DNA of 64,000 nt, from the NCBI GenBank assembly GCA_030041545.1, contig JASHNQ010000059.1, forward strand, positions 16,222-80,221, given 5' to 3'. The notes under the pieces were generated by a model. It searched no databases and was not told the DNA's origin. It was given only the letters and a program-made list of their open reading frames with translations. A program made the translations under genes and the position numbers. Positions 6,830 to 54,317 of the stretch are shown in pieces. The stretch's first letter is position 1; the number at the start of each line of letters is the position of its first letter. This DNA comes from a candidate division FCPU426 bacterium (GTDB lineage Bacteria > Oederibacteriota > Muellerivitia > Muellerivitales > Muellerivitaceae).

Positions 6830-6854
6830 AGATCAATTCCGTTGGGAGGTTTCG

Positions 6855-7469: not shown

Positions 7470-7556
7470 ATTTCACTGAGGAATTAGGTTTGGAGATAAG
7501 GTTAAAAAAAACTCCTAATTTCAAACCCTAACTCCTCACTCATCCCGGAGGAATGT

Positions 7557-7976: not shown

Positions 7977-7995
7977 CTTTGAGTCAAGGCGTTGA

Positions 7996-8763
7996 ATGGA
8001 TAAACAATTCCGAAACTCCCTCTTTTATTCCACCCTTTTTCATGGGTTGCTGTTGCTTGTCCTATTCCTCCTGTACCGTTCCTTCCTGGTGGCGAATACG
8101 CCCCTCATGATGCAGTTGACCTTGATCGGCCAGATGTCCAAAGGATACGGTTTAGGTTCGCCCGAGGCGAAAAGCGGGGAGGCGCCCAACGTTCTTCCAC
8201 CGGCGGCCACCAATGGCGAATTCGGATCCACCAGCCAAACCCGGTCCAATCCACCCCTGCCCAACGCCGAAAAGCCCGAAGTTGCGGTCAAAAGGCCCCT
8301 GAGTCCTAAAAGAAACTCGGGCAGCGCGCCGTCGGAGAAGTACCTGGAAAGCCTGAATAACGAAGCCCCTATCGGCCTGGAAGAGCAAAAAAATCCCAAT
8401 GACCAGATCAAGACCTCCACGGGTGTGGGCCCATCGGGCGTGGCGGGCTCGCCTGAGGGTAGCCCCACCATCGAGGGCGAACTGGCGGCCCGCGCCATCA
8501 AACACCAAGTGGATCCGGTTTATCCGGATTGGGCGAAAAAGCAGGGCATCGAGGCCGTGGTTAAGTTCCGGCTGACGGTGCTGCCCAACGGGCTCCTGAG
8601 GGAGGATGACCTCCAATTGGACCAAACTTCAGGCTACCGCGAACTGGACCGGGCGGTCTATGACGCCCTTGTGCAGTGGCAATTCCAGCCCCTGGACCCC
8701 AGCGTTCCGCAGGTGGACCAATCGGGCGTCATCACTTTTTCCTTTAGCCTTAAAAACCAATAA
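7996..8763 (+). CDS. tonB: energy transducer TonB (or TolA-like)
   Basis: N-terminal TM anchor, Pro-rich linker, C-terminal TonB-C-like domain (VDPVYPDWAKKQGIEAVVKFRLTVLPNG...). Confidence 0.75.
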   Translation: MDKQFRNSLFYSTLFHGLLLLVLFLLYRSFLVANTPLMMQLTLIGQMSKGYGLGSPEAKSGEAPNVLPPAATNGEFGSTSQTRSNPPLPNAEKPEVAVKRPLSPKRNSGSAPSEKYLESLNNEAPIGLEEQKNPNDQIKTSTGVGPSGVAGSPEGSPTIEGELAARAIKHQVDPVYPDWAKKQGIEAVVKFRLTVLPNGLLREDDLQLDQTSGYRELDRAVYDALVQWQFQPLDPSVPQVDQSGVITFSFSLKNQ

Positions 8764-23174: not shown

Positions 23175-24200
23175 CTAGCGGTTCAAAGCCCGGTGGCGTT
23201 TCAGGAGCAAGGAACTCCAGGAATAATCCTCCAATCTCAGGTGATGAAGCTTGCCACCATCCCCAAAAGCCTTTTGGTGGGCGGATCGGGCCTTGGTGGA
23301 GGCCAGCTTCACGTAGTTTTCACTGACCATGATGCTGGAATGGCCCATCAAGTCCCGTATTTCATAAACGCTGGCGCCCGATTCGGCTAATTGGGTGCCG
23401 AAGGAATGCCGTAACACGTGCACGGTCAGTTCGTCCGGGTTTTCCAAGTGGGCCCACTTTGCCGCTTTCTTGACCCATGACTCCAGGTAATCCGGATGAA
23501 TGGGTTTTTGGGCGCTTCTTGGACTTGCGAAAAGATAGGGGCTCTGGGGTTTGTCCTGGTTTGCCAAATAACGCTTTAGCAACTCCTTCAAGGTCTCGGT
23601 CATAGGCACGGTGCGTTCCTTGTCGCCCTTACCAATGACTGTGACCAAGCCCTGGGCAAGGTCCAAATCACGGGTCCGCAAATGGGCGATCTCCGAAACC
23701 CTCAAGCCGCAATGGTAGCCTAAAAGGACGGTCAGACTAATTTTTTGACCCTCTAAGTTATCTGTTTGGAGGCTCTTGACTAATGCTTCGCGATCCCGGG
23801 GCGACAAAGGATGGGGGTTTCTCTGGGGGCTTCGGATGGAAAGGTTGTGGAAAACGGCGGTAGGATCGTTGGTGATGTGCTGGGTCGAAGCCAAGAAACG
23901 GTAAAAGGACCGGGTGGAGGCCAGAATGCGTTTCATGGACCGAGTGGAATAAGCGTTCCGGAACTTACCGCTCGGGGTTTTGCCAGCTTTGGTCAAAGAC
24001 CCAGCAAAGCGGACCATATGTTCTGGTTTTGCGCCAGCAGGGCCCAAGATGTCGTTCTGGTCCAGGAATAGCTTTAAAACGCGAAGGTCTTGATGATAAT
24101 TTTCCTTGGTGTGGGAGGATTTGCACAACGCCAGAAAACCATCATAGGGCTTGATTTCCAAAAGATTGAGCGGGTTGGGAGCTTGTGATTGGGGGTTCAT
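23175..24200 (-). CDS. tyrosine-type site-specific recombinase/integrase (XerC/D-like)
   Basis: R...GKGDKERTVP box I and LRHSFGTQLAESGASVYEIRDLMGHSSIMVSENY box II with the catalytic Tyr. The start could instead be 24323. Confidence 0.75.
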   Translation of the reverse strand: MNPQSQAPNPLNLLEIKPYDGFLALCKSSHTKENYHQDLRVLKLFLDQNDILGPAGAKPEHMVRFAGSLTKAGKTPSGKFRNAYSTRSMKRILASTRSFYRFLASTQHITNDPTAVFHNLSIRSPQRNPHPLSPRDREALVKSLQTDNLEGQKISLTVLLGYHCGLRVSEIAHLRTRDLDLAQGLVTVIGKGDKERTVPMTETLKELLKRYLANQDKPQSPYLFASPRSAQKPIHPDYLESWVKKAAKWAHLENPDELTVHVLRHSFGTQLAESGASVYEIRDLMGHSSIMVSENYVKLASTKARSAHQKAFGDGGKLHHLRLEDYSWSSLLLKRHRALNR

Positions 24201-24424
24201 AAACTCGGTATAACTGTAATTATACCAAGTTTTGGAACCGAATGGGAAGAGAATTATTTTTGTATTTTTTTCCGCAGACAGTGCAGACCAGGTTTTCTTC
24301 GTAATAACCTCTTCTAGGTCCACCCATAGGGTCCTCTCAACTGGCGATTTTGCATTTGAAGGCGGTTTTTTTCGACGATCATACGGCGAGGTAAGCCGTC
24401 ATATTCCGTCGAACGGCGCTTTTT

Positions 24425-36217: not shown

Positions 36218-36820
36218 ATGAAAACAGCACCTAAAATCTCTATCCCCAAAACCCTTTTCCAAAAGGGCGTCCTGCGTCCCCGCGACATCCTCCAACAAGG
36301 GATCAGCCGGATGCGCCTGAAAAGGCTGGTGGACCAAGGCGTCCTAGTGCGTGAGGCGCGGGGGGTATACCGCGTTCCCGGCCATGAACCTTCCGAAAAG
36401 GAAAGCCTCGTCCAGGCCTGCGAAAGAGTGCCGGGCGGCATTCTTTGCCTGCTGACGGCGCTCCAATTCCATGGCATGACAACCCAATTCCCCCATGAAA
36501 TCTGGATGGCGATTGACGTGTGGGCCCGCAAGCCCCATGCGGAACATCTTCCCATCCGTTTTGTCCGTGCTTCCGGCAAATCCCTCGCTTCCGAGGTGGA
36601 GGAACACACCGTCCAAGGCGGGCGCATCCGGGTTTATAGCGCGGCGAAAACAGTTGCCGATTGCTTCAAGTACCGGAACAAGATCGGCCTGGACGTGGCG
36701 CTGGAAGCCCTGAAAGCCTTCCAAACCGGCCACAAAGGAAAGATGGATGATCTTTGGAGGAGCGCCCGCGTTTGCCGCGTGTCAAATATCATCCGGCCTT
36801 ATTTGGAGGCCCTGGCTTGA
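36218..36820 (+). CDS. abiEi: AbiEi family antitoxin (type IV TA / abortive infection)
   Basis: N-terminal wHTH region (GISRMRLKRLVDQGVLVREARGVYRV) and C-terminal conserved domain typical of AbiEi_4. Confidence 0.8.
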   Translation: MKTAPKISIPKTLFQKGVLRPRDILQQGISRMRLKRLVDQGVLVREARGVYRVPGHEPSEKESLVQACERVPGGILCLLTALQFHGMTTQFPHEIWMAIDVWARKPHAEHLPIRFVRASGKSLASEVEEHTVQGGRIRVYSAAKTVADCFKYRNKIGLDVALEALKAFQTGHKGKMDDLWRSARVCRVSNIIRPYLEALA

Positions 36821-37685
36821 AGAAAAAAAAAAGATCAAAAACCTCCCAGCTTCTGTGCGTCAGCGGCTCTATAACATCTCCAAAACTCGCAAGGAGGAAT
36901 TCGAATATGTCCTCACACGGTACGCCCTGGAAAGGTTCCTTTACCGCCTGGGCCGGTCAGTCCACCAAAAGAGGTTCGTTTTGAAAGGGGCCATGCTTTT
37001 CCAAGCCTGGTCACCCGAGATCCACCGTATGACCAGGGATTTGGACCTCCTGGATTCCAACAACCATGAAGCCCAAAAGGTCGTCCATGCTATCCGGGAA
37101 GTGTTGAATTCAAAAGTCCCAGATGACGGATTGGTTTTCAACGGTAAGTCGATTAAGTGGGGAGCCATCCGGCAGGGGCAAGCCTATCATGGGGTCCGCC
37201 TTCACTTTAAGGCCAAATTGACCCCGGCGGTCATCCCCCTCCAAGTAGATGTGGGTTTCGGCGACGCGATTGTGCCAAAGCCCAAGCGCATCCGTTACCC
37301 GACCCTTTTGGGTTTCCCATCCCCACATGTCCTGGCTTATGCCAAAGAAACCGTGGTCGCGGAAAAGCTCCATGCCATCGTGCTACTGGGCATGACGAAC
37401 AGCCGCTTGAAGGATTACTTCGACCTGTCGGTGCTCCTGAAAGGCGAAACCCTCGACGCCGACATGCTGGCCCAAGCGATTAAGGCAACGTTCAAGCGCC
37501 GCAGCATGCCCGTTCCCGCCGAACTGCCGATCGGTCTCACGGACGAATTCTCGCACGATCCATCGCAACAGGCGCTATGGCGTGCGTTCGTCAAGAGGAA
37601 CGGACTCGACCTCGAACCTTTGGCCGCCGTCGTGGAGCGACTGCGGACGGCCTTGGGACCGGCATTGAGCCGGGCCGGTCTATGA
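36747..37685 (+). CDS. abiEii: nucleotidyltransferase AbiEii/AbiGii toxin family protein
   Basis: NLPASVRQRLYN...YALERFLYRL N-terminal signature. DLD(L)LD NTase-like motif. First ATG overlaps abiEi by 74 nt; the true start may be a non-ATG codon nearer 36820. Confidence 0.8.
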   Translation: MIFGGAPAFAACQISSGLIWRPWLEEKKKIKNLPASVRQRLYNISKTRKEEFEYVLTRYALERFLYRLGRSVHQKRFVLKGAMLFQAWSPEIHRMTRDLDLLDSNNHEAQKVVHAIREVLNSKVPDDGLVFNGKSIKWGAIRQGQAYHGVRLHFKAKLTPAVIPLQVDVGFGDAIVPKPKRIRYPTLLGFPSPHVLAYAKETVVAEKLHAIVLLGMTNSRLKDYFDLSVLLKGETLDADMLAQAIKATFKRRSMPVPAELPIGLTDEFSHDPSQQALWRAFVKRNGLDLEPLAAVVERLRTALGPALSRAGL

Positions 37686-40600
37686 CAACCGCTTCTTTCG
37701 TATCCATTGACCTGGAAGTCGGCCGCGACAGCGGACGCATCCACCAGTTGGCTGGGGTACATAGCAATGGCATCGCCTCCCTTGCCTTTCCGCCCGGTAC
37801 GCTGTCTGATGCGCTTGATGCCTTGGATCGCCTCGCCGACGGCGCTACATTTGTTATCGGGCACAACCTGATCGCCTTCGACTTGCCGCAGTTGCGCGCG
37901 GCCCAGCCCAATCTGCGGCTACTGGATAAACCCGCGGTTGATACGCTACGCCTCAATCCCCTAGCCTTCCCGCGAAACCCCTACCACCACCTCGTCAAGC
38001 ACTACCAGGACGGCGCCTTGCTCGGCAACCGCCGCAATAATCCATTTTTGGACGCTGAACTCGCCTTGCAAGTCTTTGCCGACCAACACGCCAGCCTGAA
38101 AGCGATGCAGCACACCATGCCCGACTTGTTGCTCGCGTGGCATTGGCTGACAGCCCAGAATGACGGTGTTGGCGGATTTGATCGCTTCTTTACCGAAGTT
38201 CGCGGCACCGGCAAGCCGGATGCGGCACAGGTTGGGGCTGCATTTAGCCGTTTGCTGGACAACACGGCCTGCACACGAGCCAGTGCAAAAATCATCTCCG
38301 AAGCGGCGCAATCCCCCTGGTCTTTGGCCTATGCACTCGCCTGGATATCCGTGGCGGGGGGTAATTCGGTGGTGTCGCCGTGGGTGCGTCACCAGTTCCC
38401 TGAAACTGGACGGTTGATCCGGGCCCTGCGCGACACGCCCTGCGCCGATCCGGCCTGCGCCTGGTGCCGACGCGAACACGACTCTCTGGCCCAGTTGAAG
38501 CAGTGGTACGGCAAGGATTACGACTTTCGCTCCGAGCCGGTGGATAAGTCCAGCGGCCTGCCCTTGCAGCGGGTGATCGTCGAAGCGGCAATTCGCGGCG
38601 AGCACGCGTTAGGCATTTTGCCCACCGGCACCGGTAAGTCGCTGTGTTACCAGGTGCCCGCCCTGTCGCGTTTCGTGCGCACCGGAGCGTTGTCCATCGT
38701 CATCTCGCCATTGGTGGCGCTGATGGAAGACCAAGTAATGGGACTCCGCGAGCGCGGCATCGAAGGCTGCGCGGCGATCAACGGCCTGTTGTCCATGCCC
38801 GAGCGCGCGGACGTGCTGGACCGGGCACGCCTGGGTGATGTCGGCATCCTCCTCATCGCGCCGGAGCAGTTGCGCAACAAGAGCGTGCGAAAAGTTCTGG
38901 CACAGCGCGAGATCGGCGCTTGGATTTTCGACGAGGCCCACTGCCTGTCTAAGTGGGGACAGGATTTTCGCCCCGATTACCGTTATGTCGCCCGCTTCAT
39001 TCGTGAAAGCGCCGAGGCCAGTCCAAGCGGCGAACTGCCGCTGATCCAATGCCTGACCGCCACTGCCAAGCCCGAGGTCGTGGCCGACATCGTGGGCCAC
39101 TTCCGCGAAAGACTTGGTGTGGAGCTGCGCGTGTTCGACGGCGGATCGAAGCGTGACAACCTCGAATTCGATGTGATCGAAACCACCCCCGGCCAAAAAT
39201 TCGACCAAGTCGCCCACCTGATCGAGCGCGACTTGCCCGCCGGAATGTTCGGCGGGGCCATCGTTTACTGCGCCACGCGCAACCGGACGGAAGACCTGGC
39301 CGGTTTTCTGTGCGAAAAAGGGATGGCTGCCGCCCCTTACCACGCGAAATTGAAACCGGAAACCAAGAAGGAGACGCAGAAAGCATTCATTATGGGTACG
39401 CTACGCGTCATCGCGGCGACCAATGCTTTCGGCATGGGGATCGACAAGCCCGACGTGCGTCTTGTCGTCCATGCCGACATTCCCGGCTCGCTGGAAAATT
39501 ATTTGCAGGAGGCAGGCCGCGCCGGGCGTGACCGCGCACAGGCGCGCTGCGTGCTGCTCTACGCCCCCGATGACGTAGAGCGCCAGCACGGCATGTCGGC
39601 GGCCTCTCGCCTGTCGCGGCGCGACATCCAGAGCGTACTGCGCGCCTTGCGCCAGTTGCAGCGCAAGAAGGAACGCGATCAGGCGCTGGTCGCCACTGCC
39701 GGTGAAATCCTGAACGAGAATGAAGAAGGCGAGTTCAAACGCGACGGTGCCACCGACGACACCCGCGTGCGCACAGCCGTCGCGTGGCTGGAGGAAGCCG
39801 GATTGTTGCGCCGCGAGGAAAACACGGTTCAAATCTTCCCTTCGTCGCTCCGTGTCAAAAACCTGGCCGACGCTGAGCGCAAGCTGGCGGGCGTCGATGC
39901 CATATACCGCCAGAAATGCCTGGACCTGGTCCAAATCCTGTTGGCCGCCCCAGCGAATGAAGGACTGTCCACCGACGAACTAATGGCAGCCACCGGCCTT
40001 CATGCCGATGCCCTGCGCGAAACCCTGTTCCTTTTCGACCGCCTGGACATTGCCGGCAACGACACGGCGATGACCGCCTACGTCCACGTCGCGGTCGAAA
40101 ATTCGTCGAAGAAACGTTTTGACGAAGCCTGCGCGTTGGAGCAGGCCGTGATCGCCGCCCTACGGGAAGAAGCACCCGACCTCGGGGCGGGCGACGCCTC
40201 GCCGTTGCACCTGCGCCTGCTGGCCCAGCGGCTGAAAGACCAGGGCTTTCCTGCGCTGCCCCAACGGCTGCGCCAGGTCATCGCTGGGCTGGCGGGTGAC
40301 GGTCGCGACGGCGAGGATGGCAAGGGAAGCCTTACCTTGAAGCGCGGTGCCGATCCCGAGACGATTCATGTCACGCTCAACCGTCCATGGAACACTCTGG
40401 AAAAGATTGCCGAGCGTCGCCGCAGCGCCGCCCGAAGGCTGCTGGAGCATTGGCTGTCCGCCCTGCCGCAAGGTGCACGCGGCGTCGATCAACTGGCGGA
40501 AACCACGCTCGGCAAACTAACCGCCAGCGTCGCGGGCGATGCCATCCTCTCCGCCGAAACCCCGGACATACGCAAGCTAGTCGATCGGGCTCTGCTATGG

Positions 40601-42778
40601 CTGCACGAGCAGGAAGTGCTACGCCTGAACAAGGGGCTGGCCATCTTTCGCGCCGCAATGACTTTACATCTGGAACCCAACTGGAAGTTGCAATTTGAAA
40701 AAAACAACTACCAGCCACTGGCCATGCACTACGACGAACTGACCCGGCAAATCCACATCATGGCGGAATACGCCGAGCTTGGCGTCAAGAAAATGGCCGA
40801 TGCTCTGCGCCTGGCGGTGGACTATTTCCGCCTGTCACGCGAGGAGTTTTGTCGGCGATGGCTGCCGGGCCGCGAAGACGAACTAACCCGCCAGACCACG
40901 CCCCAGTCCTGGGACACCATCGTCGAAACCCTGTCCCGACCTCACCAACGCAGGATCGTCGCCGATGACCGGGAGGACACCAACGTGCTGGTGCTTGCCG
41001 GACCCGGCTCGGGCAAGACCCGCGTGCTCGTCCACCGCATCGCCTACCTAGTGCGTATACGCCGCGAAAACCCCCGGGCCATTCTGGCCCTGGCCTACAA
41101 CCGCCATGCGGCGCTGGAGATCCGCAAGCGATTGATAGAACTCATCGGCGGCGACGCACGCGGCGTCACTGTGCACACCTGCCACGGACTGGCCATGCGC
41201 CTGATGGGTGCGAGCTTTGCAAATCGCAGAGGCGAGGATGCCGACTTCGACGCCGTTCTGAAGGAGGCAACAGCCCTGCTCGAAGGCCACGGCTTGCCGC
41301 CGGAAGATGCCGACGTTCAGCGCGACCGCCTGCTGGCGGGTTTTCGCTGGATATTGGTGGACGAGTACCAGGATATCGACCCCGGCCAGTACGCGCTGAT
41401 CTCGGCGCTGGCTGGGCGCAAGCGCAACGACGAGGATGGACGCCTCAACCTGTTCGCGGTGGGCGATGACGATCAGAACATCTACGCTTTTGCGGGTGCC
41501 TCGGTAGAGTTCATCCGCCGCTTTACCGAGGACTACAAGGCCAAAACGGAACTCCTGGTCGAAAACTACCGCAGCACACGCCACATCATCGACGCCGCCA
41601 ACCGCGTGATAATCCGTGCTGCGTCGCGGATGAAGACTGAAGCGATCCGAGTAAACACCGCCCGCGCCCAATGCGCGCCTGGCGGCGATTGGCAACGGAT
41701 CGACCCTGTGGTACAGGGCCGCGTACAGATACTCCCCACTGGCAACAGCGCGCAACAGCAGGCACTGGCCATCTACACCGAACTGCGGCGCATGATGGCG
41801 CTTGGCCTCGATCCAGCCAAAACGGCGGTCATCGCCCGCCAGTGGAAATTCCTCGATCCCCTGCGCGCGGCGCTGGAAGCCGCCGATATCCCCGTCGCTA
41901 TGGCCGATGAAGAGGCGCCACTCCTGTGGCGTTTACGCGAAACGCAGGCGCTGCTGGCTTTTCTCGATGAACGGCAAACAGCTTCCGGCTCCCGGTTGCT
42001 CAAAGCGGATGACCTTCAATCCTGGCTGGCAACGCAGGACAGCACGGGCTGGTGGCCCATGCTCAGCGAAGCCATAGCCGCCTTTGCCGAGGACACCCAG
42101 GGTGCGGAAGTATTGCTTGCCTCCTTCCGCGACTGGTTGGCCGAATGGGGCCGCGCTAGCCGCCGCCTGCAAACCGGCATCCTGCTTCTGACCGCGCACC
42201 GCGCTAAAGGGCTGGAGTTCGACCATGTGTTCATTCTTGACGGCGAATGGCAGGCCGGCAAGAACGAGGATCAGGATGGGGCGCGACGCCTCTATTACGT
42301 CGCCATGACCCGCGCCCGCGCCACCCTGGCGCTGGCGCGCATGAATACGGGGAATGCCATGCTCGATGGCCTGGCTGATCATCCTGCCCTGTTGCGCCGT
42401 CCTCTAACGCAATGGTTGCCACCCCCCGGACCAATGGAACGCTATTATCGGATGCCCGGACTGGAAGAGATCAACCTCGGTTTCGCGGGTCGGCAGGACG
42501 TAGGCCACCGGGTGCACCGCGCCATCGCCAGCCTACGCATTGGTGATGCGCTGCGCTACGTCGGGGACGAACTGGGTCATCGGCTCGAAAACACGTCCGG
42601 CGTGACCGTCGGGCGCTTGTCGAAAAATTTCGAACCGCCGCCCGGATTGCGTTGCCAAGCGGCTCGGGTGCGCGCCATTCTGGTCTGGCGCAAATCTGAC
42701 AGCGCGCCGGAATATCAGGCCCAATGCCGCAGTGAAACTTGGGAAGTCGTTCTGCCGGAACTGGTTTTCGCACCTTGA
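37682..42778 (+). CDS. fusion protein: DnaQ-like 3'-5' exonuclease + RecQ-family helicase + UvrD/PcrA-family helicase (WRN-like with extra SF1 helicase)
   Basis: ATG overlaps the abiEii stop (ATGA at 37682-37685). Exo motifs FVSIDLEV and GHNLIAFDLPQL. RecQ motifs ILPTGTGKSLCYQVPAL, DEAHCLSKWGQDFRPDY, LTATA, HADIPGSLENYLQEAGRAGRD. UvrD motifs LAGPGSGKTRVLVHRIAYLV, ILVDEYQDIDP, VGDDDQNIYAFAG, ENYRST, LLTAHRAKGLEFDHVFI, YYVAMTRAR. Confidence 0.85.
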   Translation: MTTASFVSIDLEVGRDSGRIHQLAGVHSNGIASLAFPPGTLSDALDALDRLADGATFVIGHNLIAFDLPQLRAAQPNLRLLDKPAVDTLRLNPLAFPRNPYHHLVKHYQDGALLGNRRNNPFLDAELALQVFADQHASLKAMQHTMPDLLLAWHWLTAQNDGVGGFDRFFTEVRGTGKPDAAQVGAAFSRLLDNTACTRASAKIISEAAQSPWSLAYALAWISVAGGNSVVSPWVRHQFPETGRLIRALRDTPCADPACAWCRREHDSLAQLKQWYGKDYDFRSEPVDKSSGLPLQRVIVEAAIRGEHALGILPTGTGKSLCYQVPALSRFVRTGALSIVISPLVALMEDQVMGLRERGIEGCAAINGLLSMPERADVLDRARLGDVGILLIAPEQLRNKSVRKVLAQREIGAWIFDEAHCLSKWGQDFRPDYRYVARFIRESAEASPSGELPLIQCLTATAKPEVVADIVGHFRERLGVELRVFDGGSKRDNLEFDVIETTPGQKFDQVAHLIERDLPAGMFGGAIVYCATRNRTEDLAGFLCEKGMAAAPYHAKLKPETKKETQKAFIMGTLRVIAATNAFGMGIDKPDVRLVVHADIPGSLENYLQEAGRAGRDRAQARCVLLYAPDDVERQHGMSAASRLSRRDIQSVLRALRQLQRKKERDQALVATAGEILNENEEGEFKRDGATDDTRVRTAVAWLEEAGLLRREENTVQIFPSSLRVKNLADAERKLAGVDAIYRQKCLDLVQILLAAPANEGLSTDELMAATGLHADALRETLFLFDRLDIAGNDTAMTAYVHVAVENSSKKRFDEACALEQAVIAALREEAPDLGAGDASPLHLRLLAQRLKDQGFPALPQRLRQVIAGLAGDGRDGEDGKGSLTLKRGADPETIHVTLNRPWNTLEKIAERRRSAARRLLEHWLSALPQGARGVDQLAETTLGKLTASVAGDAILSAETPDIRKLVDRALLWLHEQEVLRLNKGLAIFRAAMTLHLEPNWKLQFEKNNYQPLAMHYDELTRQIHIMAEYAELGVKKMADALRLAVDYFRLSREEFCRRWLPGREDELTRQTTPQSWDTIVETLSRPHQRRIVADDREDTNVLVLAGPGSGKTRVLVHRIAYLVRIRRENPRAILALAYNRHAALEIRKRLIELIGGDARGVTVHTCHGLAMRLMGASFANRRGEDADFDAVLKEATALLEGHGLPPEDADVQRDRLLAGFRWILVDEYQDIDPGQYALISALAGRKRNDEDGRLNLFAVGDDDQNIYAFAGASVEFIRRFTEDYKAKTELLVENYRSTRHIIDAANRVIIRAASRMKTEAIRVNTARAQCAPGGDWQRIDPVVQGRVQILPTGNSAQQQALAIYTELRRMMALGLDPAKTAVIARQWKFLDPLRAALEAADIPVAMADEEAPLLWRLRETQALLAFLDERQTASGSRLLKADDLQSWLATQDSTGWWPMLSEAIAAFAEDTQGAEVLLASFRDWLAEWGRASRRLQTGILLLTAHRAKGLEFDHVFILDGEWQAGKNEDQDGARRLYYVAMTRARATLALARMNTGNAMLDGLADHPALLRRPLTQWLPPPGPMERYYRMPGLEEINLGFAGRQDVGHRVHRAIASLRIGDALRYVGDELGHRLENTSGVTVGRLSKNFEPPPGLRCQAARVRAILVWRKSDSAPEYQAQCRSETWEVVLPELVFAP

Positions 42779-42828
42779 TCGGCGGTGCACAAGTCGCACG
42801 AAATTAACCTGACTTTCGCAACTAAAGA

Positions 42829-42912
42829 GTGTGACCAAATAGGTTTTTTGGCATGCCCGTGGGGCGATTAAGGAAAAGCCAAGGATGAAAACGGCTAAAT
42901 ACTTTTTCATAA
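42829..42912 (-). pseudogene. orphan duplicate of the signal-peptide coding segment of the downstream Thr/Pro-rich protein gene
   Basis: About 84 nt with about 90% identity to 43651-43733. Encodes MKKYLAVFILGFSLIAPRACQKTYLVT against MKKYLAVFILGFSLTAPWACKRTYLVT. Downstream reading frame is antisense to the helicase 3' end. Confidence 0.45.
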
Positions 42913-42940
42913 TGGAATGGCCCTATCGGGAGGGCCTGGC

Positions 42941-43732
42941 TTATACGGAAATGGCGGAAGAACCCACCTGCCATTGGACCGGCAGGTTCATCAGTGGCAC
43001 GACGACGGCCACGTACCCGTACGGTATTAGGGGTGCGGGAGTCGAGGTTAGCTCAGAGTAAACCAAAAAAACACTAACTGTCACTTGGGTGGCGTTCCAA
43101 CAAACGCTCAAAACTCCGACGCCAGTGGTGGGGTTGGTCGGAGGCTCGTATACAAGAACCATTTGGGTGGAAAAATCCACGGCCGGGGGCGTGGAGGACC
43201 CATAAATCGACTGCCAGGCGGCTTGATTGGTAATGACCAGGGTCGTTCCTGAAACTGGTTGACCGGGCGCAATGGGGACAAAGTCACCGGCGGTGAGGGG
43301 GGCGTAAGGGACGTTCCAAGTGGGCATGGAGACCGACGTGAATCCGCAATTGGTGGCGATCGGGGTGAAGGTAACTGTTGGTGTGGAAGTCGTCGTAGGC
43401 GTATTGGTCCAAGTGGGGGTAGGGGTGGGTGGGACCTGGGTATTGGTCGGCGAGGGAGTCGGGGTGGCGGTGGAAGTAAAGCTTGGTGTAAAAGTGGAAA
43501 GGGTGGAAGGCGTAAAGGTGGGCGTGGAAGTGGGCGTGGGCGATGGCGCGGCCGTTATTGAAGTCGTCAGGAAATAATAAGTGTAAATGGGGGAAGGCGA
43601 AAAACTAGGCGTGGGCGATGGTGTGGCCGCCATTGAAGTCGGCGACAGGGGTGTGACCAAATAGGTTCTTTTGCATGCCCATGGTGCGGTTAAGGAAAAG
43701 CCAAGGATGAAGACGGCTAAATATTTTTTCAT
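42941..43732 (-). CDS. secreted Thr/Pro-rich repetitive protein
   Basis: Signal peptide, long TPTPT/STPT low-complexity linker, beta-rich C-terminal domain. Confidence 0.55.
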   Translation of the reverse strand: MKKYLAVFILGFSLTAPWACKRTYLVTPLSPTSMAATPSPTPSFSPSPIYTYYFLTTSITAAPSPTPTSTPTFTPSTLSTFTPSFTSTATPTPSPTNTQVPPTPTPTWTNTPTTTSTPTVTFTPIATNCGFTSVSMPTWNVPYAPLTAGDFVPIAPGQPVSGTTLVITNQAAWQSIYGSSTPPAVDFSTQMVLVYEPPTNPTTGVGVLSVCWNATQVTVSVFLVYSELTSTPAPLIPYGYVAVVVPLMNLPVQWQVGSSAISV

Positions 43733-44004
43733 ATCGGCATCCTGCGCTGAGACATACATTTTTAAGCTTATAGACGGTCGTGTCAAGTTCGGCCGCGATC
43801 CATGGAGTCCACGACCAGCTATCGAACCTAAAAAAACGCAATTTCAGGGCCTTTGTATCATTAAACTTCCATCGCTTTCGCTTACGCCTTTTCCGGCTGG
43901 AACCAGCTGAGTACACAAAGTAAGTCGAAAATGTCTTGAAAAAGAATTCGGTTTACTTCGTGGTCTTCGTGTACTTCGTGGTGAGAGAGGTTTTGAAACA
44001 GGTT

Positions 44005-47503: not shown

Positions 47504-48586
47504 TCAAGGAGGGGGAGTGGGGGTCGGATTATTTTGGTTGCAGTAGGTCGCGCCGTAGGTGGTCTGGTCGAACTTCATGTAGTTCAGCCCTTGATTGTTA
47601 TAAACAAACCAAAAATAAAGCTGGGTACTGCCGGGTAGAGTTATTCCGCAATTATTTTCAGGCGTGAATTGGACCCAAGCGGTCGCGTTCGTGGATAAAA
47701 CCTTCACCGCGAAAATATCGTTCGCCGCGAGGGTAGCCGCCGCCGAACCCACGGCCGCGGTCTTGGCCTGGAGCGTATTGGGGTAATAAACCGCGTTGGA
47801 GGGGATCAAGGGGAAATCCACCAAGTCTCCATTGCCCAAATAGGTGAAGATGGAGGGAGCGGGCGAGATGGCCACATCCTGGCTTACGGGCCCGGCCAGG
47901 TAAGTCGAAAGGGTGGTCTGGTCGAATAGGGCTTGCACGTCTCCAGTTCCTAAGGATGTTGAATCGGATGTGACTCCTGAGTTGAATGAATAAAGGTCAC
48001 CGAAGCCCAAAGTCACCTCACAATCGGTATTGTCGGTAATGGTCGTGGTGTAACAACTGTCTTCATCGTAGCCGATGTCCTCCATACTCAGGGTGAAGGA
48101 GGTGGTCCCTTGGACATTCACCTCGTCCGCCCCCACGAACTCCGGACTGGCGGAGGAATATCCTGGCACGGTCAGCTTGGCACTTACCGCCTTTTTCACG
48201 CCCGCGGTGGTGAGGCTATTTAACTGAAACCACTCGGCCGATACCACCCACACCCCCGCTTTGGGCAGGTTGATGAAGATATTCCCCACATCCGACCCGC
48301 TGGTAAATGTGATGACTCCCGTGACCGGGGTTTCCCCGGCCGTGGCCAGGTAATACTCCAAAGCCCCCGCGCTGGGGTTGGGTACACCCCCCGAGGAACT
48401 GGGGGTCACGGGGACGGCCTGGGATTTCACATTGGAAAGAGTATTAAGGATTTGCGGCGGGATCACTAGGTTCAGCACCGCCGCATTGACGGGCACCACG
48501 GGGCTGGAAGACTTGTTGCAACCCGCCAGGATGGAGGCCATTCCGACGCAACAAGCTAACCCCCCCCAAAAAATTTTTTTCACCAT
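47504..48586 (-). CDS. hypothetical lipoprotein
   Basis: Lipobox LAGC. Ser/Thr-rich. PTPTPPP C-terminus. Confidence 0.5.
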   Translation of the reverse strand: MVKKIFWGGLACCVGMASILAGCNKSSSPVVPVNAAVLNLVIPPQILNTLSNVKSQAVPVTPSSSGGVPNPSAGALEYYLATAGETPVTGVITFTSGSDVGNIFINLPKAGVWVVSAEWFQLNSLTTAGVKKAVSAKLTVPGYSSASPEFVGADEVNVQGTTSFTLSMEDIGYDEDSCYTTTITDNTDCEVTLGFGDLYSFNSGVTSDSTSLGTGDVQALFDQTTLSTYLAGPVSQDVAISPAPSIFTYLGNGDLVDFPLIPSNAVYYPNTLQAKTAAVGSAAATLAANDIFAVKVLSTNATAWVQFTPENNCGITLPGSTQLYFWFVYNNQGLNYMKFDQTTYGATYCNQNNPTPTPPP

Positions 48587-49746
48587 TTGAATCCCACGTT
48601 CGTTCCGAAAGTGAACCGCTGGTAGGTGATGGTTTGGTTGTTGACCCCGGCGTTGACATTAGCGATGTAATGGTAAAGCCCGGCCAGGTTCCAGAAGGTT
48701 GAAGAAGAGAGTTGGAAGGTGATGCTTTGTTCGGCCCCCAAAAGGTTTCCCCCTCCCTCGTAATATTCCGTGCTGGACTGGGGATACCCGTTGGGCTGGA
48801 TCCAGTCCCAAACCAACCCGCTTTCCAGCACCACGCCCGGGCCCGCGGAATAGCCGAAGATGGGATGGATTTCCAGCTTGTCCCCAAAATAAGGCCCTGG
48901 GTCCGCGGCGAGGGAATAGGGGGCCGTTGTCTGGGCCGTGTTGCCGGTCCCGTAAAAGCTGTAGGAGGCGTTGATTACCAGCTTGTCCTTCCCCATTTGG
49001 CTGATCCATTGGGTGGTGAGAATATTGCTGGCATCCTCGGTAAAATCCTCCGACGCGGTGGAATAGGTCGACTCAAAGGGGAAAGTGCGCACGTAGCGGA
49101 AGGCCCAAATATCGGCGGCCGACATGCGCAGCCCTAGGGTGGCTAGGGCCACTGCGTTGTCGCCCGGGCTGAAGGTGCCTTGTGCGGAAAGGGTCGTGTC
49201 GTAGGTGGCCGTGGACATGAACCCACCGCCCAGGCCATACTCGACGCCGGGACTTGAAACCGAAAGGGTGTAAAAAACGTCGCCACCCCAGCCCGCGCCA
49301 TGGTAGTAGCTCGGCTCAAAGATAAAGGGGATGGCCCCGACCAGCTCCGCGATTTCCCACCGGTTGTCGCCCGTGGGGATGTTCAGGATGCCGGAAAAGG
49401 TGGACCGCACGGAGTTGCCCATGTCCAGCCCCCAGTTGACGCCCAGGCTGGTGTCGGAAAACTCGCTGGAACTATAGCTGGAGCCCGCGATGCCAAAGCT
49501 GGGGTCCGCGTCCTGCACATAGTCCCCCGCCACGAAGGCCGTGTTCAGGGAAAGGGAAAGGTCTGGCGAGGAGAAATAATAGGACAGGGGGACCCGGTTC
49601 TCGGTCCCGTTGTAAAGCGAGTTGCTATTCCAAAAATCGAAGACATAGCCCGCCTGCAGCTCCTCTTGGTCGGCCCGCGACGGTCCCCCGGCTAAAAACA
49701 GGCCCAAGGCCAGGACCGCCGTGATACCGCATTGTCTCAGGTTCAT
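48580..49746 (-). CDS. putative outer-membrane beta-barrel protein
   Basis: Signal peptide. Alternating hydrophobic beta-strand pattern. C-terminal ...NVGFKW aromatic end. Confidence 0.5.
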   Translation of the reverse strand: MNLRQCGITAVLALGLFLAGGPSRADQEELQAGYVFDFWNSNSLYNGTENRVPLSYYFSSPDLSLSLNTAFVAGDYVQDADPSFGIAGSSYSSSEFSDTSLGVNWGLDMGNSVRSTFSGILNIPTGDNRWEIAELVGAIPFIFEPSYYHGAGWGGDVFYTLSVSSPGVEYGLGGGFMSTATYDTTLSAQGTFSPGDNAVALATLGLRMSAADIWAFRYVRTFPFESTYSTASEDFTEDASNILTTQWISQMGKDKLVINASYSFYGTGNTAQTTAPYSLAADPGPYFGDKLEIHPIFGYSAGPGVVLESGLVWDWIQPNGYPQSSTEYYEGGGNLLGAEQSITFQLSSSTFWNLAGLYHYIANVNAGVNNQTITYQRFTFGTNVGFKW

Positions 49747-49761
49747 AAAGTCGGTCTTTCG

Positions 49762-50550
49762 TTATTTCGTTAAAGGAAGGTATTGGGGGAATCCCAGTTG
49801 TAAATTCAGCAAGTTGTGGGCGCCCAGCGCCGCGATTCCCGTGTTGTGAACCTGGCCGGTGATCCCAGGCAACCCACTGGGCAGATCGGTCAGAGGAGTG
49901 TTGAACTCGTCCAAACCTGTGCCATTGAAACCGTAAAAAGGGTTGGAGGCAATGAAGCCCGGGTGAGGCAGATTGGTTCCCGTGGAAGGCGGCGTATGCG
50001 GCGTCCAGGTTCCGTTCAGGTAGGTGCCTCCCTGGCCCGCGTGGAATTCCTGGGTCTGGCCGTTGGCCGTGGACCAAACCGTGCCGTCGAGCACCAAGAC
50101 GTCCACCTTGCCCGTGGAGGGGTCGTAAAACATCGAGTATTCCGTGCCTCGCACGCCGCACACCACGCCCCCGGCCTCGATCTCGAAGGAGGATTTGGAC
50201 GTCAGCAACTTGCTCACGCTCGCCAAAAGCTTGCCCAGTTCCAGTTTGAATTGGATGACCTTGTCCTTGGGTCCGGGTTGCTGGAGCTTTTCCACCGTGA
50301 ACCCGGTATTGGGGCTGATTTGAAGTTGGGACCCGTCGAAGAGCTTCAGGGTGGCCTGGCCGTCGGCCCCGGCCTCGATACGGTCCCCTTCCGAAACCTG
50401 TCCATTGACCTTGGCTGGATGGGCCTTGTGGCTTTTGGCGGTCGTGAACGTGACCGTGCCCGTGACGGAAGTGAAAACGGCCCCGGTATCGGCCAGGGCC
50501 AATCCCGGAAGGATCAGTAGGAACGTTATAAGTGTGAGCAAGCGTTTCAT
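49762..50550 (-). CDS. periplasmic FecR-domain protein
   Basis: Signal peptide. FecR-like segment ATLKLFDGSQLQISPNTGFTV...FEIEAGGVVCGVRGTEY. No cytoplasmic anti-sigma N-domain. Confidence 0.55.
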   Translation of the reverse strand: MKRLLTLITFLLILPGLALADTGAVFTSVTGTVTFTTAKSHKAHPAKVNGQVSEGDRIEAGADGQATLKLFDGSQLQISPNTGFTVEKLQQPGPKDKVIQFKLELGKLLASVSKLLTSKSSFEIEAGGVVCGVRGTEYSMFYDPSTGKVDVLVLDGTVWSTANGQTQEFHAGQGGTYLNGTWTPHTPPSTGTNLPHPGFIASNPFYGFNGTGLDEFNTPLTDLPSGLPGITGQVHNTGIAALGAHNLLNLQLGFPQYLPLTK

Positions 50551-50823
50551 ACGAACCCCTTGGGCCCACGGGCCCTTTCTTGTTTACAATTTAAGCATAT
50601 CAAAAACAAGCCAAATCTTAGGTGAAACTCCGATTAAATTTTCCAAAAACAGGGATTTTTACGAAAATTAACCTTGCATTGATCACGCCTCTGGAAGGGA
50701 AAACGCTTCCTAGGGTCGGCGGCAAAAGAAGGCTCCCACCGAACTCCCCATAACCAAACGGATTTTTCGCCGTATGCCGATCCCACGAACTTGAAATGTA
50801 TTGAAGGAGCAAGAGCTAAGGGG

Positions 50824-52392
50824 TCAGGAGGGACCGGTAAGGCCCATGACTTCGTAGATTTGTACCTTCGCGGACTTACCCTTGAGGGAGACGGATTTCA
50901 ACTTGTTGACCTTGACGGCGTTTCCCAGTTCCTGGAAGGTCTCCTCCGTGATGAAGATCTGCCCGCCCTCGGTCTCCCCTTCCACGCGGGAGGCGGTGTT
51001 CACCATGTCGCCGATGGCCGTGTACTCCATCCGTCGCTCGCTGCCGATGTTGCCCACGATGGCCTCGCCGGTGTTGAGGCCGTAGCCCACCTGGATCTGG
51101 GGTTTCTTCTCGGCCTTCCACTTCTCGTTCAACTTGGCCAGCTTGTCACGCATCTCAATGGCCGTCTTGACGGCCTTATAGGCCCCGTCCTTCAGCTCCA
51201 GGGGCGCCCCGTAGATGGCCATGACGGCGTCGCCGATGAACTTGTCCAATGTGCCGTTGTTGGCGAAGATGACCTCGGACATGGCGCTGAAATACTCGTT
51301 GAGGAGGCCCACGATGGTTTCCACGGGCTCCTTCTCGGTGAGGGTGGTGAAACCGCGGATGTCGCAGAACAGGACCGAAATTTTCCTTTTCTCGCCGCCC
51401 AAGGAAAGCGCGCCCGTCTTCTCCACCATCTCGTCCACGAGGTTGGGGGAAAGGTAGCGCTGCAGCGAGGTGCGCAGGCGCTCCTCCCGCCTCACGTCGT
51501 CGAAGAGCTTGGCGTTGGCGATGGCCACCGCGGCCTGGTTGGCGAAGGCCGAGAGGAAGTACATGTCCTCCTCGTTGAAGGTGGTGGTGCCTTCCGCCTT
51601 GTCCACGTAAATGACGCCCACGATGTTTTCCCGCTCCCAGATGGGCACGCAGATGACCGAGGAGAGGGGCAGGGCCTTGAGGCTTTCACGGCCGGAGAAA
51701 CGCACGTCGTGGATGGCGTCCAGGACCAGCACGGGCACCCGCTCCCGCAGGACCGTGTCCACGATGGTCTGGCTGTAGGGGGCCTGGGCCTCGGCGGGGG
51801 TCAAGGCATGGGTGGCCGCGGGCTTAAGGTCGCCCGCCTTGTCCCGCAAGAGCAGGAAGCCCCGGTTGGCCTGCATGACCTTGATGGCCATGGCCATGAT
51901 GATGGAAAGCAGGGTCTTGAGTTCCAGCACCGAGTTGACGATGTTCCCCACCTCGTAAAGGGTGAGGAGCTTCTTGTGGGCCAGCTCGTCGATCTTAGGG
52001 GTCCGCGAGTCCTCCGAGTCCTTGGAGACCTCCAGGGCGAACCGCAGGCGGGTGCCGCCGATGGAAATCACGTCCTGGCTGCGCAAGGGGTTCTCGGTGA
52101 CGCGGGCGCCGTTCAGGAAGGTGCCGTTGGTGCTGCCCAGGTCCTTGAGGGAGATGCCGCCCATCCCCAGCATGATCTGGCAATGCTGCCGGGAGACCAG
52201 GGGATCGGTGACGACGATCTCGCAGGTGGTGGAGCGGCCCAGGATGGTGGTGGGCCGGGAGACCTTGAACACCTGCCCCTGCTCCGGCCCGGCCATGACG
52301 GTCAGGGTGATTTGCGGCTTGCCCGTGGACTTGGGGGGGGTGAGGATGATGCGGCCCGGAGTGGACGGTTCGGCGGATTGGGGAGAAGGCAT
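50824..52392 (-). CDS. FHA-GAF-adenylate/guanylate cyclase (class III) signalling protein
   Basis: FHA (TILGRSTTCEIVV...VSRQHCQI...GSTNGTFLNG), GAF, and cyclase motifs ISVLFCDIRGFT and FIGDAVMAIYGAP. Confidence 0.8.
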   Translation of the reverse strand: MPSPQSAEPSTPGRIILTPPKSTGKPQITLTVMAGPEQGQVFKVSRPTTILGRSTTCEIVVTDPLVSRQHCQIMLGMGGISLKDLGSTNGTFLNGARVTENPLRSQDVISIGGTRLRFALEVSKDSEDSRTPKIDELAHKKLLTLYEVGNIVNSVLELKTLLSIIMAMAIKVMQANRGFLLLRDKAGDLKPAATHALTPAEAQAPYSQTIVDTVLRERVPVLVLDAIHDVRFSGRESLKALPLSSVICVPIWERENIVGVIYVDKAEGTTTFNEEDMYFLSAFANQAAVAIANAKLFDDVRREERLRTSLQRYLSPNLVDEMVEKTGALSLGGEKRKISVLFCDIRGFTTLTEKEPVETIVGLLNEYFSAMSEVIFANNGTLDKFIGDAVMAIYGAPLELKDGAYKAVKTAIEMRDKLAKLNEKWKAEKKPQIQVGYGLNTGEAIVGNIGSERRMEYTAIGDMVNTASRVEGETEGGQIFITEETFQELGNAVKVNKLKSVSLKGKSAKVQIYEVMGLTGPS

Positions 52393-52442
52393 TTCATGAC
52401 CTTTCGAGGCGAATTATGAATTTTTAATTTTAAATTGTTGAA

Positions 52443-52500
52443 AGTTTTGATCCAAAGGTTCAACACTTTCCATAACTCGGAACTCACAACTCAAAACTTA
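52443..52500. repeat. intergenic repeat element (family copy 3) between the cyclase gene start and the kinase gene end
   Basis: AGTTTTGATCCAAAGGTTCAACAC...ATAACTCGGAACTCACAACTCAAAACTT. Same core as copies 1 and 2. Confidence 0.45.
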
Positions 52501-52508
52501 GAATTTGT

Positions 52509-54317
52509 TTATTTTTTCAACGCGTATACCAGCACGCTGCAGTTGGCGATGTCCGTCACGAAAAGGTTGTTCTCCGCGTCCAGGGTGACGCCGTAATACT
52601 TGGGGGCGGTGCGGTAATTGCCTTGGGGCGTTCCGAACTCGGTCAAATAATACCCCTCCGGGTCGAAAACTTGGATGCGCATGTCCCGGTCGGTCACGAA
52701 GATGTTGCGCTTGGAATCCACCGCCACGCCGATGGGCGCGGCGAACTCGCCCCTCCCTGACCCCCTTTTGCCGAACTTGTTCTTGAAGACGCCCCGGTAG
52801 GTGAAGACCTGGACCCGGTAGTTCTTCTCGTCCACCACCAGCAGGTTCTGGGCGCTGTCGGTGGTCAGGCCCGTCGGGCAGTTGAACTCGCCCAGCCGCG
52901 CGCCCTGGATGCCAAACTTGTTGATCACCTTCCCGGCGGAATTGAAGACCCGGATGCGGTGGTTGCCCGTATCCGAGACGTAGATGTTGTCCTTTTCGTC
53001 CAAGGCCAGGGCTTGGGGGTGGAAAAACCCCCCTGTCCCGATCTCAATTTTACCCGTTGTGGGCGAGGCAGGCTCGCCAAATTTCGCCAAAAGTTGCCCC
53101 ATTTTTCCGATAATTTGGACATTGCAGGTCTTGGCGTCCAAAACCACCAGGTTCCCCCCCTGGTCCACGGCCAGTGAAACCGGCATCAAGAAGGAGATTT
53201 CCTTGGGGTCCTGCACCTCCTTCCCGAATTTGCCCACGGAATAAAGGAATTTGCCGTCAAAATCAAAAACCTGTATGTTGCACTTGAGGGAATCGCAGAC
53301 GTAAATGCGTTTCTGTGAGTCCACGGCCACAGCCAGGGGCGAGATGAAGTTGCCGTCTTCCTTGCCCCGAGTCCCGATGGCTTTGATGAGCTTGTAATGG
53401 TAGCCCTGGTACCGCAGGGTGTTGATGTCCCCCGGATCCTTGGCCGCCTCTTTCTTGGTTTCCTCTTGAATGATGGTGTGGGTCAAAACCTCCTGGGTTT
53501 TACTGCCGATGCCAATAGGGGCGTCTAATACCTTGAGCGGCAGATTTTCCAGGTCGGCTTTCATCTCATTGGCCGTCTGATAACGTTTAGAGACTTCTTT
53601 TTGCAACGCTTTCATGATGACGGCTTCCAGTTCCTTGGGCAAATTGGCGTTTAACTTGTGGGGTTCGGTGACGTCATCCTTGAGGATCTTGTTAAGGACC
53701 ACCATGGGGACCTCATCGTAAAAGGGAAGCTTACCCGTCACCATTTCGTACAGGATGACCCCTACCGAATAAACATCCGAGGCCTTGGCCGGGTGCCCCA
53801 GCACCTGTTCCTTGGCCATGTAGTAAAGGGTGCCCCCAATGCCCGCCCCGTTTTTCCCCGCCTGGATGACGGCCGTGCCGAAATCGGTGATTTTGGCTTT
53901 TCGGTCGGAGGTCAGGAGGATATTGCCGGGCTTTAGGTCCCGGTGGATGACATTCTTGTCGTGGGCGTATTGGAGCGCGGAAAGGATTTGGATGACAATA
54001 TCGACGGCTTCCTTGAAAGTGAGGGGGGTTTCCTGGATGAGCTGGGCGAGGTTCTTCCCATCCACGTATTCCATGACCATGAAGAAAATGTTCTCGGCCC
54101 TGTCAACCGTCAGGATTTGGACGATATTGGGATGGTCCAGGGAGGCCAGCAGCTTGGGTTCAGCGATGAGGTTGGTGAACTCTTCTTTTTGGTTGTGGGG
54201 TATTTTGATGGCGACTTTCTTGCCGATCCAGGTGTCCTCGGCCAGCCAGACGGTGCCGAAGGTGCCGCTGCCCTTGATCTCAAGGAGTTTATATTTGTCG
54301 ATATTTCCCTGAAGCAT
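52509..54317 (-). CDS. Ser/Thr protein kinase with C-terminal NHL-repeat beta-propeller
   Basis: Kinase subdomains (GSGTFGTVWLA, VAIK, HRDLKPGNILL, DFGTA). Five or six NHL-like repeats (...NHRIRVFN..., ...YRVQVF..., ...MRIQVFD...). Confidence 0.85.
   Translation of the reverse strand: MLQGNIDKYKLLEIKGSGTFGTVWLAEDTWIGKKVAIKIPHNQKEEFTNLIAEPKLLASLDHPNIVQILTVDRAENIFFMVMEYVDGKNLAQLIQETPLTFKEAVDIVIQILSALQYAHDKNVIHRDLKPGNILLTSDRKAKITDFGTAVIQAGKNGAGIGGTLYYMAKEQVLGHPAKASDVYSVGVILYEMVTGKLPFYDEVPMVVLNKILKDDVTEPHKLNANLPKELEAVIMKALQKEVSKRYQTANEMKADLENLPLKVLDAPIGIGSKTQEVLTHTIIQEETKKEAAKDPGDINTLRYQGYHYKLIKAIGTRGKEDGNFISPLAVAVDSQKRIYVCDSLKCNIQVFDFDGKFLYSVGKFGKEVQDPKEISFLMPVSLAVDQGGNLVVLDAKTCNVQIIGKMGQLLAKFGEPASPTTGKIEIGTGGFFHPQALALDEKDNIYVSDTGNHRIRVFNSAGKVINKFGIQGARLGEFNCPTGLTTDSAQNLLVVDEKNYRVQVFTYRGVFKNKFGKRGSGRGEFAAPIGVAVDSKRNIFVTDRDMRIQVFDPEGYYLTEFGTPQGNYRTAPKYYGVTLDAENNLFVTDIANCSVLVYALKK

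Follow-up and report, generated by a model that had tools for sequence, protein, structure and literature searches.

Switches that combine a serine/threonine protein kinase with a forkhead-associated (FHA) domain protein are known from the Actinobacteria, in the form of PknB or PknG with GarA/OdhI, and of Rv1747. Outside the phylum FCPU426, which is the subject here, FecR-domain proteins have repeatedly been found together with CHASE2 sensors (PMC9239204, PMC5192318). In Sinorhizobium meliloti, signalling via the CHASE2 adenylate cyclases CyaD1, CyaD2 and CyaK depends on the outer-membrane barrel NsrA (PMC7529298), and the cyclic AMP (cAMP)/Clr circuit includes the FecR-domain protein SMc02177 (PMC7529298, PMC5498481); the BiofilmReg operon of Burkholderia encodes a LysM-FecR protein, a CHASE2 histidine kinase and a DUF4136 lipoprotein (PMC5192318). 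Here we describe a locus from a bacterium of the uncultured candidate division FCPU426 which contains elements of both types of system. The window, i.e. the whole stretch of DNA analysed, comprises 64,000 nucleotides (assembly GCA_030041545.1, contig JASHNQ010000059.1, positions 16,222 to 80,221 of the forward strand), and calling of open reading frames (ORFs) placed five ORFs, all on the minus strand, between positions 47504 and 54317, at the same coordinates as in the original prediction for this region. In the direction of reading these encode a Ser/Thr kinase with an NHL propeller, an FHA-GAF-adenylate cyclase, a secreted FecR-domain protein, an outer-membrane beta-barrel and a lipoprotein, the last three of which are referred to below as the triplet. 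All five domain calls had been made correctly before, as Pfam, AlphaFold2/Foldseek and the lipobox now confirm, and the five genes had been taken for one outside-in pathway; we consider it likely that they are instead two independent units, brought side by side by a recent 3.3-kb insertion, and a single outside-in pathway is not supported.

The evidence for two units comes from gene order in related genomes, the loci of which are denoted by L numbers. The order FecR-barrel-lipoprotein was kept at every locus recovered (24 loci, which represent about 20 distinct places and barrel identities as low as 39%), and several metagenome-assembled genomes (MAGs) contain at least two triplets, some of them in tandem. 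The kinase and FHA-GAF cyclase accompany the triplet only in the window, in the identical 3.6-kb contig of GCA_030051685.1 (L001), and in the closest relative L010, in which the cyclase is 93% identical; in these three assemblies the five genes are co-directional and contiguous, as expected for one pathway. In contrast, the triplet is absent from this place in all four genomes with a cyclase of 67-90% identity (L027, L028, L025 and L026, at 90, 85, 80 and 67%, respectively), where the order is MurJ-MGMT-kinase-cyclase-MutL-MiaA with a cyclase-MutL spacer of only 28-95 nt, and with NUDIX next after MiaA in three of the four. The flanks of the window cluster are the same, with MurJ and an MGMT-like gene upstream and MutL, MiaA and NUDIX downstream. 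None of 80 metagenomic FHA-GAF-cyclase loci contained a triplet homologue, and the five-gene arrangement is confined to cyclases of at least 93% identity; one MAG has both a triplet (L018) and a kinase-cyclase pair (L025) on the same contig, about 80 kb apart. We conclude that the window triplet is a 3.3-kb block which recently came to lie between cyclase and MutL by insertion, and that the lineage with this insertion extends no further than about 93% cyclase identity; the expectation that the five genes would be conserved together did not hold.

With regard to the origin of this block, a neighbour-joining tree of the barrel proteins has the window copy nested among relocated copies. Searches for direct or inverted repeats flanking the 3.3-kb insert gave only matches of chance size, and its GC content (0.56-0.59, against 0.55-0.63 for the neighbouring genes) shows no compositional anomaly, so that relocation within the genome fits better than the arrival of foreign DNA. 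The 273-nt intergenic region between the cyclase and FecR genes (50551-50823, minus strand) forms the upstream edge of the inserted block, and a blastn search for its origin against all loci found matches only to L001 and to 63 nt of L010 (50580-50642, with the -10-like sequence TGATATGCT at 50594-50602). Recombination with a CHASE2 cyclase, resulting in a chimeric enzyme, was also considered, and was rejected because identity to orthologues, among them those without a triplet, is 80-93% along the whole length of the window cyclase.

The genes had further been described as co-directional and tightly spaced, of which the first is correct, whereas the second applies to only two of the four junctions: the FecR and barrel genes are 15 nt apart and the barrel and lipoprotein genes overlap by 7 nt, but the AT-rich kinase-cyclase spacer (52393-52508, minus strand) measures 116 nt, and the cyclase-FecR gap the 273 nt mentioned above. 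The 116-nt spacer is unusual, as the two genes are separated by 13 nt in L010, and spacing in the orthologous loci ranges from a 4-nt overlap to 75 nt, is usually no more than 13 nt, and in most of these loci no more than 7 nt. Within the 116-nt spacer there is a match to a sigma-70-like consensus at 52441-52413, which is a pattern match only. The window triplet is predicted to be transcribed separately, which we consider likely from the sequences upstream of the FecR genes: a -10-like element (TAnnAT[G/A/T]C) located 40-70 nt away is present for 11 of 22 genes, compared with 3.4 +/- 1.6 in shuffled sequences, although this pattern was chosen after inspection and constitutes weak evidence.

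The first unit consists of the kinase and cyclase genes. The kinase gene (52509-54317, minus strand) encodes a 602 aa Hanks-type Ser/Thr kinase (Pkinase, 180 bits; NHL, 106 bits), with the kinase domain in residues 1-260, a Thr-rich linker with T274, T279 and T281, and the NHL beta-propeller at approximately 311-602. Its catalytic motifs are complete (Gly-rich loop G16-V23, the VAIK Lys K38, H125-R126-D127 and D145-F146-G147). There is no transmembrane segment in the protein (maximum KD19 hydropathy 1.3), and with no hydrophobic segment available the NHL propeller should therefore be cytoplasmic; the NHL propeller of Mycobacterium tuberculosis PknD is extracellular. The cyclase gene (50824-52392, minus strand) encodes a 522 aa protein in which Pfam detects FHA (71 bits, residues ~28-120), GAF (64 bits, ~157-293) and class IIIb cyclase domains (Guanylate_cyc, 97 bits, ~335-513). 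This protein is also soluble, its lone hydrophobic stretch (151-173) being the first helix of the GAF domain. The architecture is widespread: the search yielded over 5000 proteins at E <= 1e-20, and almost all among the 120 matches listed have the three domains; a search for literature combining FHA, GAF, adenylate cyclase and threonine kinase did not find any. Antisense to the cyclase gene there is a 542-aa ORF (50791-52419, plus strand) with a third-position GC content of 0.57, compared to ~0.7-0.8 in most of the window ORFs taken as genes, and most probably arose as a spurious ORF in GC-rich DNA.

The residues required for function are present in both parts of the cyclase protein. The phosphothreonine pocket of the FHA domain is complete (R53, S67, H70 and N89), with R53, S67 and H70 invariant across 22 diverse homologues (N89 is outside that list), which supports the prediction that this domain is competent for phosphothreonine binding and agrees with its earlier description as a reader of phosphothreonine. 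In the catalytic domain, the metal-binding residues D344 and D388, substrate residues K384 and T458 and transition-state residues N465 and R469 are likewise invariant in 22 diverse homologues. The best matches among solved structures are the class IIIb adenylate cyclase CyaB of Pseudomonas aeruginosa (3r5g, E 6e-39) and Synechocystis Cya2 (2w01, E 1e-42), and the six catalytic positions are all conserved in the window cyclase. At the position of K384 the guanylate cyclase Cya2 has a Glu (E488), whereas both the E488K adenylate-cyclase construct (6fht) and CyaB have a Lys, and at that of T458 there is a Thr in CyaB and a Gly in Cya2; the window enzyme thus has the Lys/Thr specificity pair of CyaB rather than the Glu/Gly pair of the cGMP-producing Cya2, and is therefore assigned as an ATP-specific class IIIb cyclase. 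Its predicted output is cAMP, which resolves the initial choice between cAMP and cGMP. CyaB and the window cyclase differ in their regulatory domains, MASE2 in the former versus FHA-GAF in the latter.

The kinase gene adjoins the cyclase gene in all seven FCPU426 loci examined (window, L010, L025, L026, L027, L028 and L031). Outside the phylum, 36 metagenomic loci had at least 2 kb of sequence upstream of the cyclase gene, and a kinase was located directly upstream in three of these; there is also a Gemmatimonadota MAG in which a 1166 aa kinase with PEGA domains directly precedes a 38%-identical FHA-GAF cyclase. The pairing is thus fixed in FCPU426 and sporadic elsewhere, but not universal. 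Together with the intact residues, the adjacency supports the step from kinase to FHA-cyclase in the original prediction. As candidate sites of phosphorylation and docking, the linker residues T274, T279 and T281 are conserved within the phylum in the orthologue alignment, as is the tail preceding the FHA domain of the cyclase (GRI[IV]LTPPKS), which contains the candidate phospho-site T18. The first unit would then be a cytoplasmic module for cAMP production gated by phosphothreonine. An intracellular ligand or protein may bind to the NHL propeller of the kinase. The kinase would phosphorylate threonines, either in its own linker or T18 of the cyclase. The FHA domain would dock on the phosphothreonine, and FHA and GAF together would set the activity of the homodimeric class IIIb cyclase and hence the production of cAMP. 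Such a module would share a Hanks kinase and an FHA protein with the actinobacterial switches, as well as a Thr-containing tail in front of the FHA domain, as in GarA, and the window FHA domain matches the PDB chains of GarA, OdhI and Rv1747 at 40-48 bits. It differs from them in that the FHA effector is a GAF-adenylate cyclase, and the sensor of the kinase is a cytoplasmic NHL propeller.

The second unit starts with the FecR gene (49762-50550, minus strand), which encodes a 262 aa secreted protein. The FecR domain (PF04773, residues 56-158) scores 47.9 bits against a gathering cut-off of 24, so that the assignment passes this threshold, at which it could have failed. The protein has a signal peptide at 1-29, with cleavage at approximately ALA|D, as its single, N-terminal hydrophobic segment; an anti-sigma domain, a transmembrane helix or a further Pfam domain was not detected. 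The FecR domain is followed by a Gly/Pro/Asn-rich linker and by the C-terminal motifs NPFYGFNG...LTDL and LNLQLGFPQYLP. An alignment of 22 proteins of this family showed a common signal peptide, a highly conserved FecR core SSFEIEAGGVVCGVRGTEY, the Gly/Pro/Asn-rich linker and the two C-terminal motifs (NPFYGFNG..DDF..LTDL and L.LQL.FPQYLP), which were present at all 22 loci, and are encoded by positions 49762-50067 in the window, i.e. the C-terminal third. These motifs lie outside the Pfam FecR domain and have not been described before; the tail that contains them may serve as a tether or as a strand docking on the barrel. With the FecI-FecR-FecA system the locus shares a Pfam FecR domain and an adjacent gene for an outer-membrane barrel, and contact between a periplasmic FecR domain and an outer-membrane protein would be an analogy. 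However, the window FecR protein is without anti-sigma domain or transmembrane helix, there is no extracytoplasmic function (ECF) sigma factor, and the barrel has 16 strands without plug or TonB-box domains. As the anti-sigma/transmembrane part, ECF sigma factor and TonB-dependent transducer were all tested for and absent, a FecIRA system was rejected. The genes near the cluster are all housekeeping genes (LeuRS, HolA, MurJ, MGMT, MutL, MiaA and NUDIX) and include neither an ECF sigma factor nor a TonB-dependent receptor, so that the absence of both from the neighbourhood, noted originally, was borne out by annotation.

The barrel gene (48580-49746, minus strand) encodes a 388 aa protein without Pfam or NCBIfam match, which has a signal peptide and ends in GFKW, a C-terminus kept in its homologues. 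The AlphaFold2 model (predicted local distance difference test score 77.8) has 16 long strands, and Foldseek matched it to porin, Occ and FadL barrels (E ~1e-8, TM 0.45-0.5); a profile search against PDB sequences gave nothing meaningful, and TonB_dep_Rec, Plug, DUF560 or TPR domains were not matched. Homologues are rare, with 43 among 5.8 billion clusters and 93 representatives among 1.84 billion in a profile search, and the barrel so far represents an undescribed family limited to FCPU426 and closely related metagenomic sequences. Among its distant relatives P0218, P0221, P0223 and P0251 there are proteins with N-terminal TPR repeats, and P0218 has a FecR domain below threshold (21.5 bits) and may be a fusion, which weakly suggests that FecR/TPR modules and barrel could work as one unit, and that other lineages may have the module in fused form. 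The lipoprotein gene (47504-48586, minus strand) encodes 360 aa, again without Pfam or NCBIfam match. The Cys of its lipobox (LAGC23) is invariant in 25 homologues, and the protein is all-beta, with conserved Cys178, Cys313 and Cys349 and one HmuY-like domain; the HmuY similarity is moderate and restricted to this single domain. A Slam or LptDE-type reading of barrel and lipoprotein was rejected as no family match supported it: while an adjacent lipoprotein gene is shared with Slam, the Slam barrel is a 14-strand DUF560 barrel with N-terminal TPR repeats and that of the window has 16 strands, and TPR_Slam gave a single match among the distant barrel relatives, which was below cut-off.

A CHASE2 sensor is absent next to the window FecR gene but present at the paralogous loci L004, L006, L007 and L011. 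A CHASE2 adenylate cyclase is encoded directly upstream of the triplet in L004/L005, L006, L007/L017 and L011, which share flanking ABC-transporter genes and hence represent one orthologous locus, with the conserved order ABC-transporter/CHASE2-cyclase/triplet/MarC and barrel identities of 39-71% across the depth of the family. The CHASE2-linked copies are spread over the barrel tree, which fits an ancestral linkage to CHASE2. In L022 a 462-aa cyclase is encoded directly upstream of the triplet, while in L002 and L024 a cyclase resembling it is encoded at a distance of 4-6 kb; the upstream neighbours of other triplets are SDR, FKBP, GltD-like and LOG proteins, unknowns, and giant NHL/PPC proteins. 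The giant proteins (2077-2360 aa, secreted, with PPC and NHL-like repeats) are encoded directly upstream of triplets in L020 (132-7214) and L008 (2-6235), at the locus where other genomes have the CHASE2 cyclase. Tandem triplets were seen in L004 (6185-12111), L008 (6395-11678) and L020 (7316-13228); their first copy is highly divergent, with a barrel 27-28% identical to that of the window, and is without lipoprotein in L008, while L020 has two consecutive lipoprotein genes. In L009, a 150-aa protein with a cyclic nucleotide-binding domain is encoded on the opposite strand about 2 kb downstream of the triplet (7136-7588), the only cyclic-nucleotide receptor seen near any triplet copy. Taken as a complex of the envelope, the second unit would place the porin-like 16-strand barrel and HmuY-like lipoprotein in or on the outer membrane, with the FecR protein probably tethered to them via its conserved C-terminal tail and its FecR domain in the periplasm. 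Its ancestral partner would be the membrane-bound CHASE2 adenylate cyclase, and the window triplet a relocated paralogue.

The FCPU426 triplet is a version of the FecR/CHASE2 theme in which the FecR protein is split, the barrel belongs to a new family, and a dedicated HmuY-like lipoprotein is present. It has a barrel, a secreted FecR-domain protein and cAMP as output in common with the NsrA/CyaD1-CyaD2-CyaK/Clr system of S. meliloti, in which, however, the genes are not in a FecR-barrel-lipoprotein operon, and the window cyclase is soluble and without CHASE2; a sequence relation between NsrA and the window barrel did not turn up, although no direct comparison was made. The known outer-membrane-associated FecR/CHASE2 adenylate cyclase system shares a FecR domain, the outer membrane, the link to a CHASE2 cyclase and TPR repeats, which are found at the C-terminus of the L011 CHASE2 cyclase and at the N-terminus of some distant barrel relatives; the triplet differs by having FecR domain and barrel on separate proteins, a dedicated lipoprotein, and no linked phosphodiesterase. 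Burkholderia BiofilmReg resembles the triplet loci in that genes beside that of a CHASE2 sensor encode a secreted FecR-domain protein and a small protein of the envelope, but its output is a two-component system rather than cAMP, it has no barrel, and its FecR protein carries LysM.

Several points weigh against a separation of the locus into two unrelated units. All sequences compared are from MAGs, and what goes beyond domain content, residue conservation and gene order, including the contacts between FHA and phosphothreonine, between FecR tail and barrel and between FecR and CHASE2, is what we infer from sequence. The kinase is not adjacent to the FHA-GAF cyclase in 33 of the 36 metagenomic loci from outside the phylum, which bears on the first unit. 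The window sequence TGATATGCT is only a near match to the -10-like element of the triplets, and the stretch between the cyclase and FecR genes contained no terminator-like site, so that co-transcription by read-through is possible. Finally, a class III cyclase gene immediately precedes the triplet in three settings that appear to be independent (CHASE2, FHA-GAF and the 462-aa cyclase), and the landing of the window triplet beside a cyclase may therefore be no accident. It is plausible that the triplet has some general functional connection to cAMP signalling, but a direct link of the window triplet to the soluble kinase and cyclase is unlikely.

What the triplet does can be explained in several ways. 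It could be a trans-envelope sensor, in which a surface-exposed lipoprotein and the barrel capture an external cue and FecR, tethered by its C-terminal tail, relays this to the periplasmic CHASE2 domain of an adenylate cyclase, with the duplicated window copy maybe undergoing a rewiring to a different cyclase; we put this forward tentatively. Alternatively, it may be a system for uptake or surface capture without any role in signalling, with a porin-like channel, a ligand-binding HmuY-like lipoprotein and FecR as accessory, and with its proximity to cyclases due to shared regulation or chance. This is possible but doubtful, since the linkage of CHASE2 cyclase and triplet is kept at the orthologous locus over 39-71% barrel identity, FecR domains are protein-protein signalling modules that are repeatedly paired with CHASE2 sensors elsewhere (PMC9239204, PMC5192318), and the HmuY similarity is only moderate and covers a single domain. 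The triplet might also be an output of cAMP signalling, as a member of an envelope regulon comparable to the Clr/cAMP-activated smc02177 (FecR domain) and smc02178 of S. meliloti, where the FecR-domain protein is a target of cAMP/Clr and dispensable for signal perception (PMC5498481). The gene for a cyclic nucleotide-binding protein beside the L009 triplet would fit with this, but there is no CRP-type site (TGTGA-N6-TCACA with up to two mismatches, a consensus which may not be that of this phylum) upstream of the 22 FecR genes, nor a CRP-like regulator gene near the cluster within the window, and we regard this explanation as unlikely. Still less probable is a link between the window triplet and the adjacent soluble cyclase. 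The single pathway from envelope via FecR, kinase and FHA-cyclase to cyclic nucleotide is very improbable, since for all the co-directional genes, the gap without terminator-like site and the recurrence of triplets beside cyclases of three architectures, the step from envelope via FecR to kinase fails on co-conservation, on the 273-nt gap between the units and on topology, the kinase and cyclase being soluble and the FecR protein having only a signal peptide, so that no encoded part carries a signal across the inner membrane.

The remainder of the window contains no paralogues of the five proteins, but does have other features. A further second-messenger gene encodes a stand-alone EAL-domain protein of the cyclic di-GMP phosphodiesterase type (9517-10797), and positions 1283-8763 contain genes for an OmpA-like protein, a 989-aa multi-TPR protein and ExbB/ExbD/TonB, the latter providing an energy-transducing system about 40 kb from the triplet; a TonB-dependent receptor was not seen anywhere in the window. 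A tyrosine recombinase (Phage_integrase with SAM-like N domain) is encoded at 23175-24323 on the minus strand. The region 36218-43786 starts with an AbiEi/AbiEii toxin-antitoxin pair (36218-37685), followed by a 1733-aa fusion of DEAD-box and UvrD-type helicases (37577-42778), and ends with a Pro/Thr-rich secreted protein (42941-43786). It lies between NUDIX and an S49 peptidase, genes which are adjacent or nearly so in the relatives L025 and L026, and appears to be a further insertion specific to the lineage, which could be a defence island.

The five-gene 'hybrid pathway' therefore fails as a single system, and should not be propagated by annotators, while the FCPU426 kinase-cyclase pair offers a clean case in which phosphothreonine may control the synthesis of cAMP. 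FecR/CHASE2 associations have been described for Campylobacterota, Burkholderia and Sinorhizobium, and the triplet adds to these. As a sensor domain CHASE2 is common, and the order CHASE2-cyclase/FecR/barrel/lipoprotein provides it with two defined outer-membrane partners; the conservation of this order points to an outer-membrane complex as the input of CHASE2, rather than a free periplasmic ligand. If this is true, the trans-envelope sensor would be the cAMP-output counterpart of Fec-type cell-surface signalling, and would answer what CHASE2 senses.

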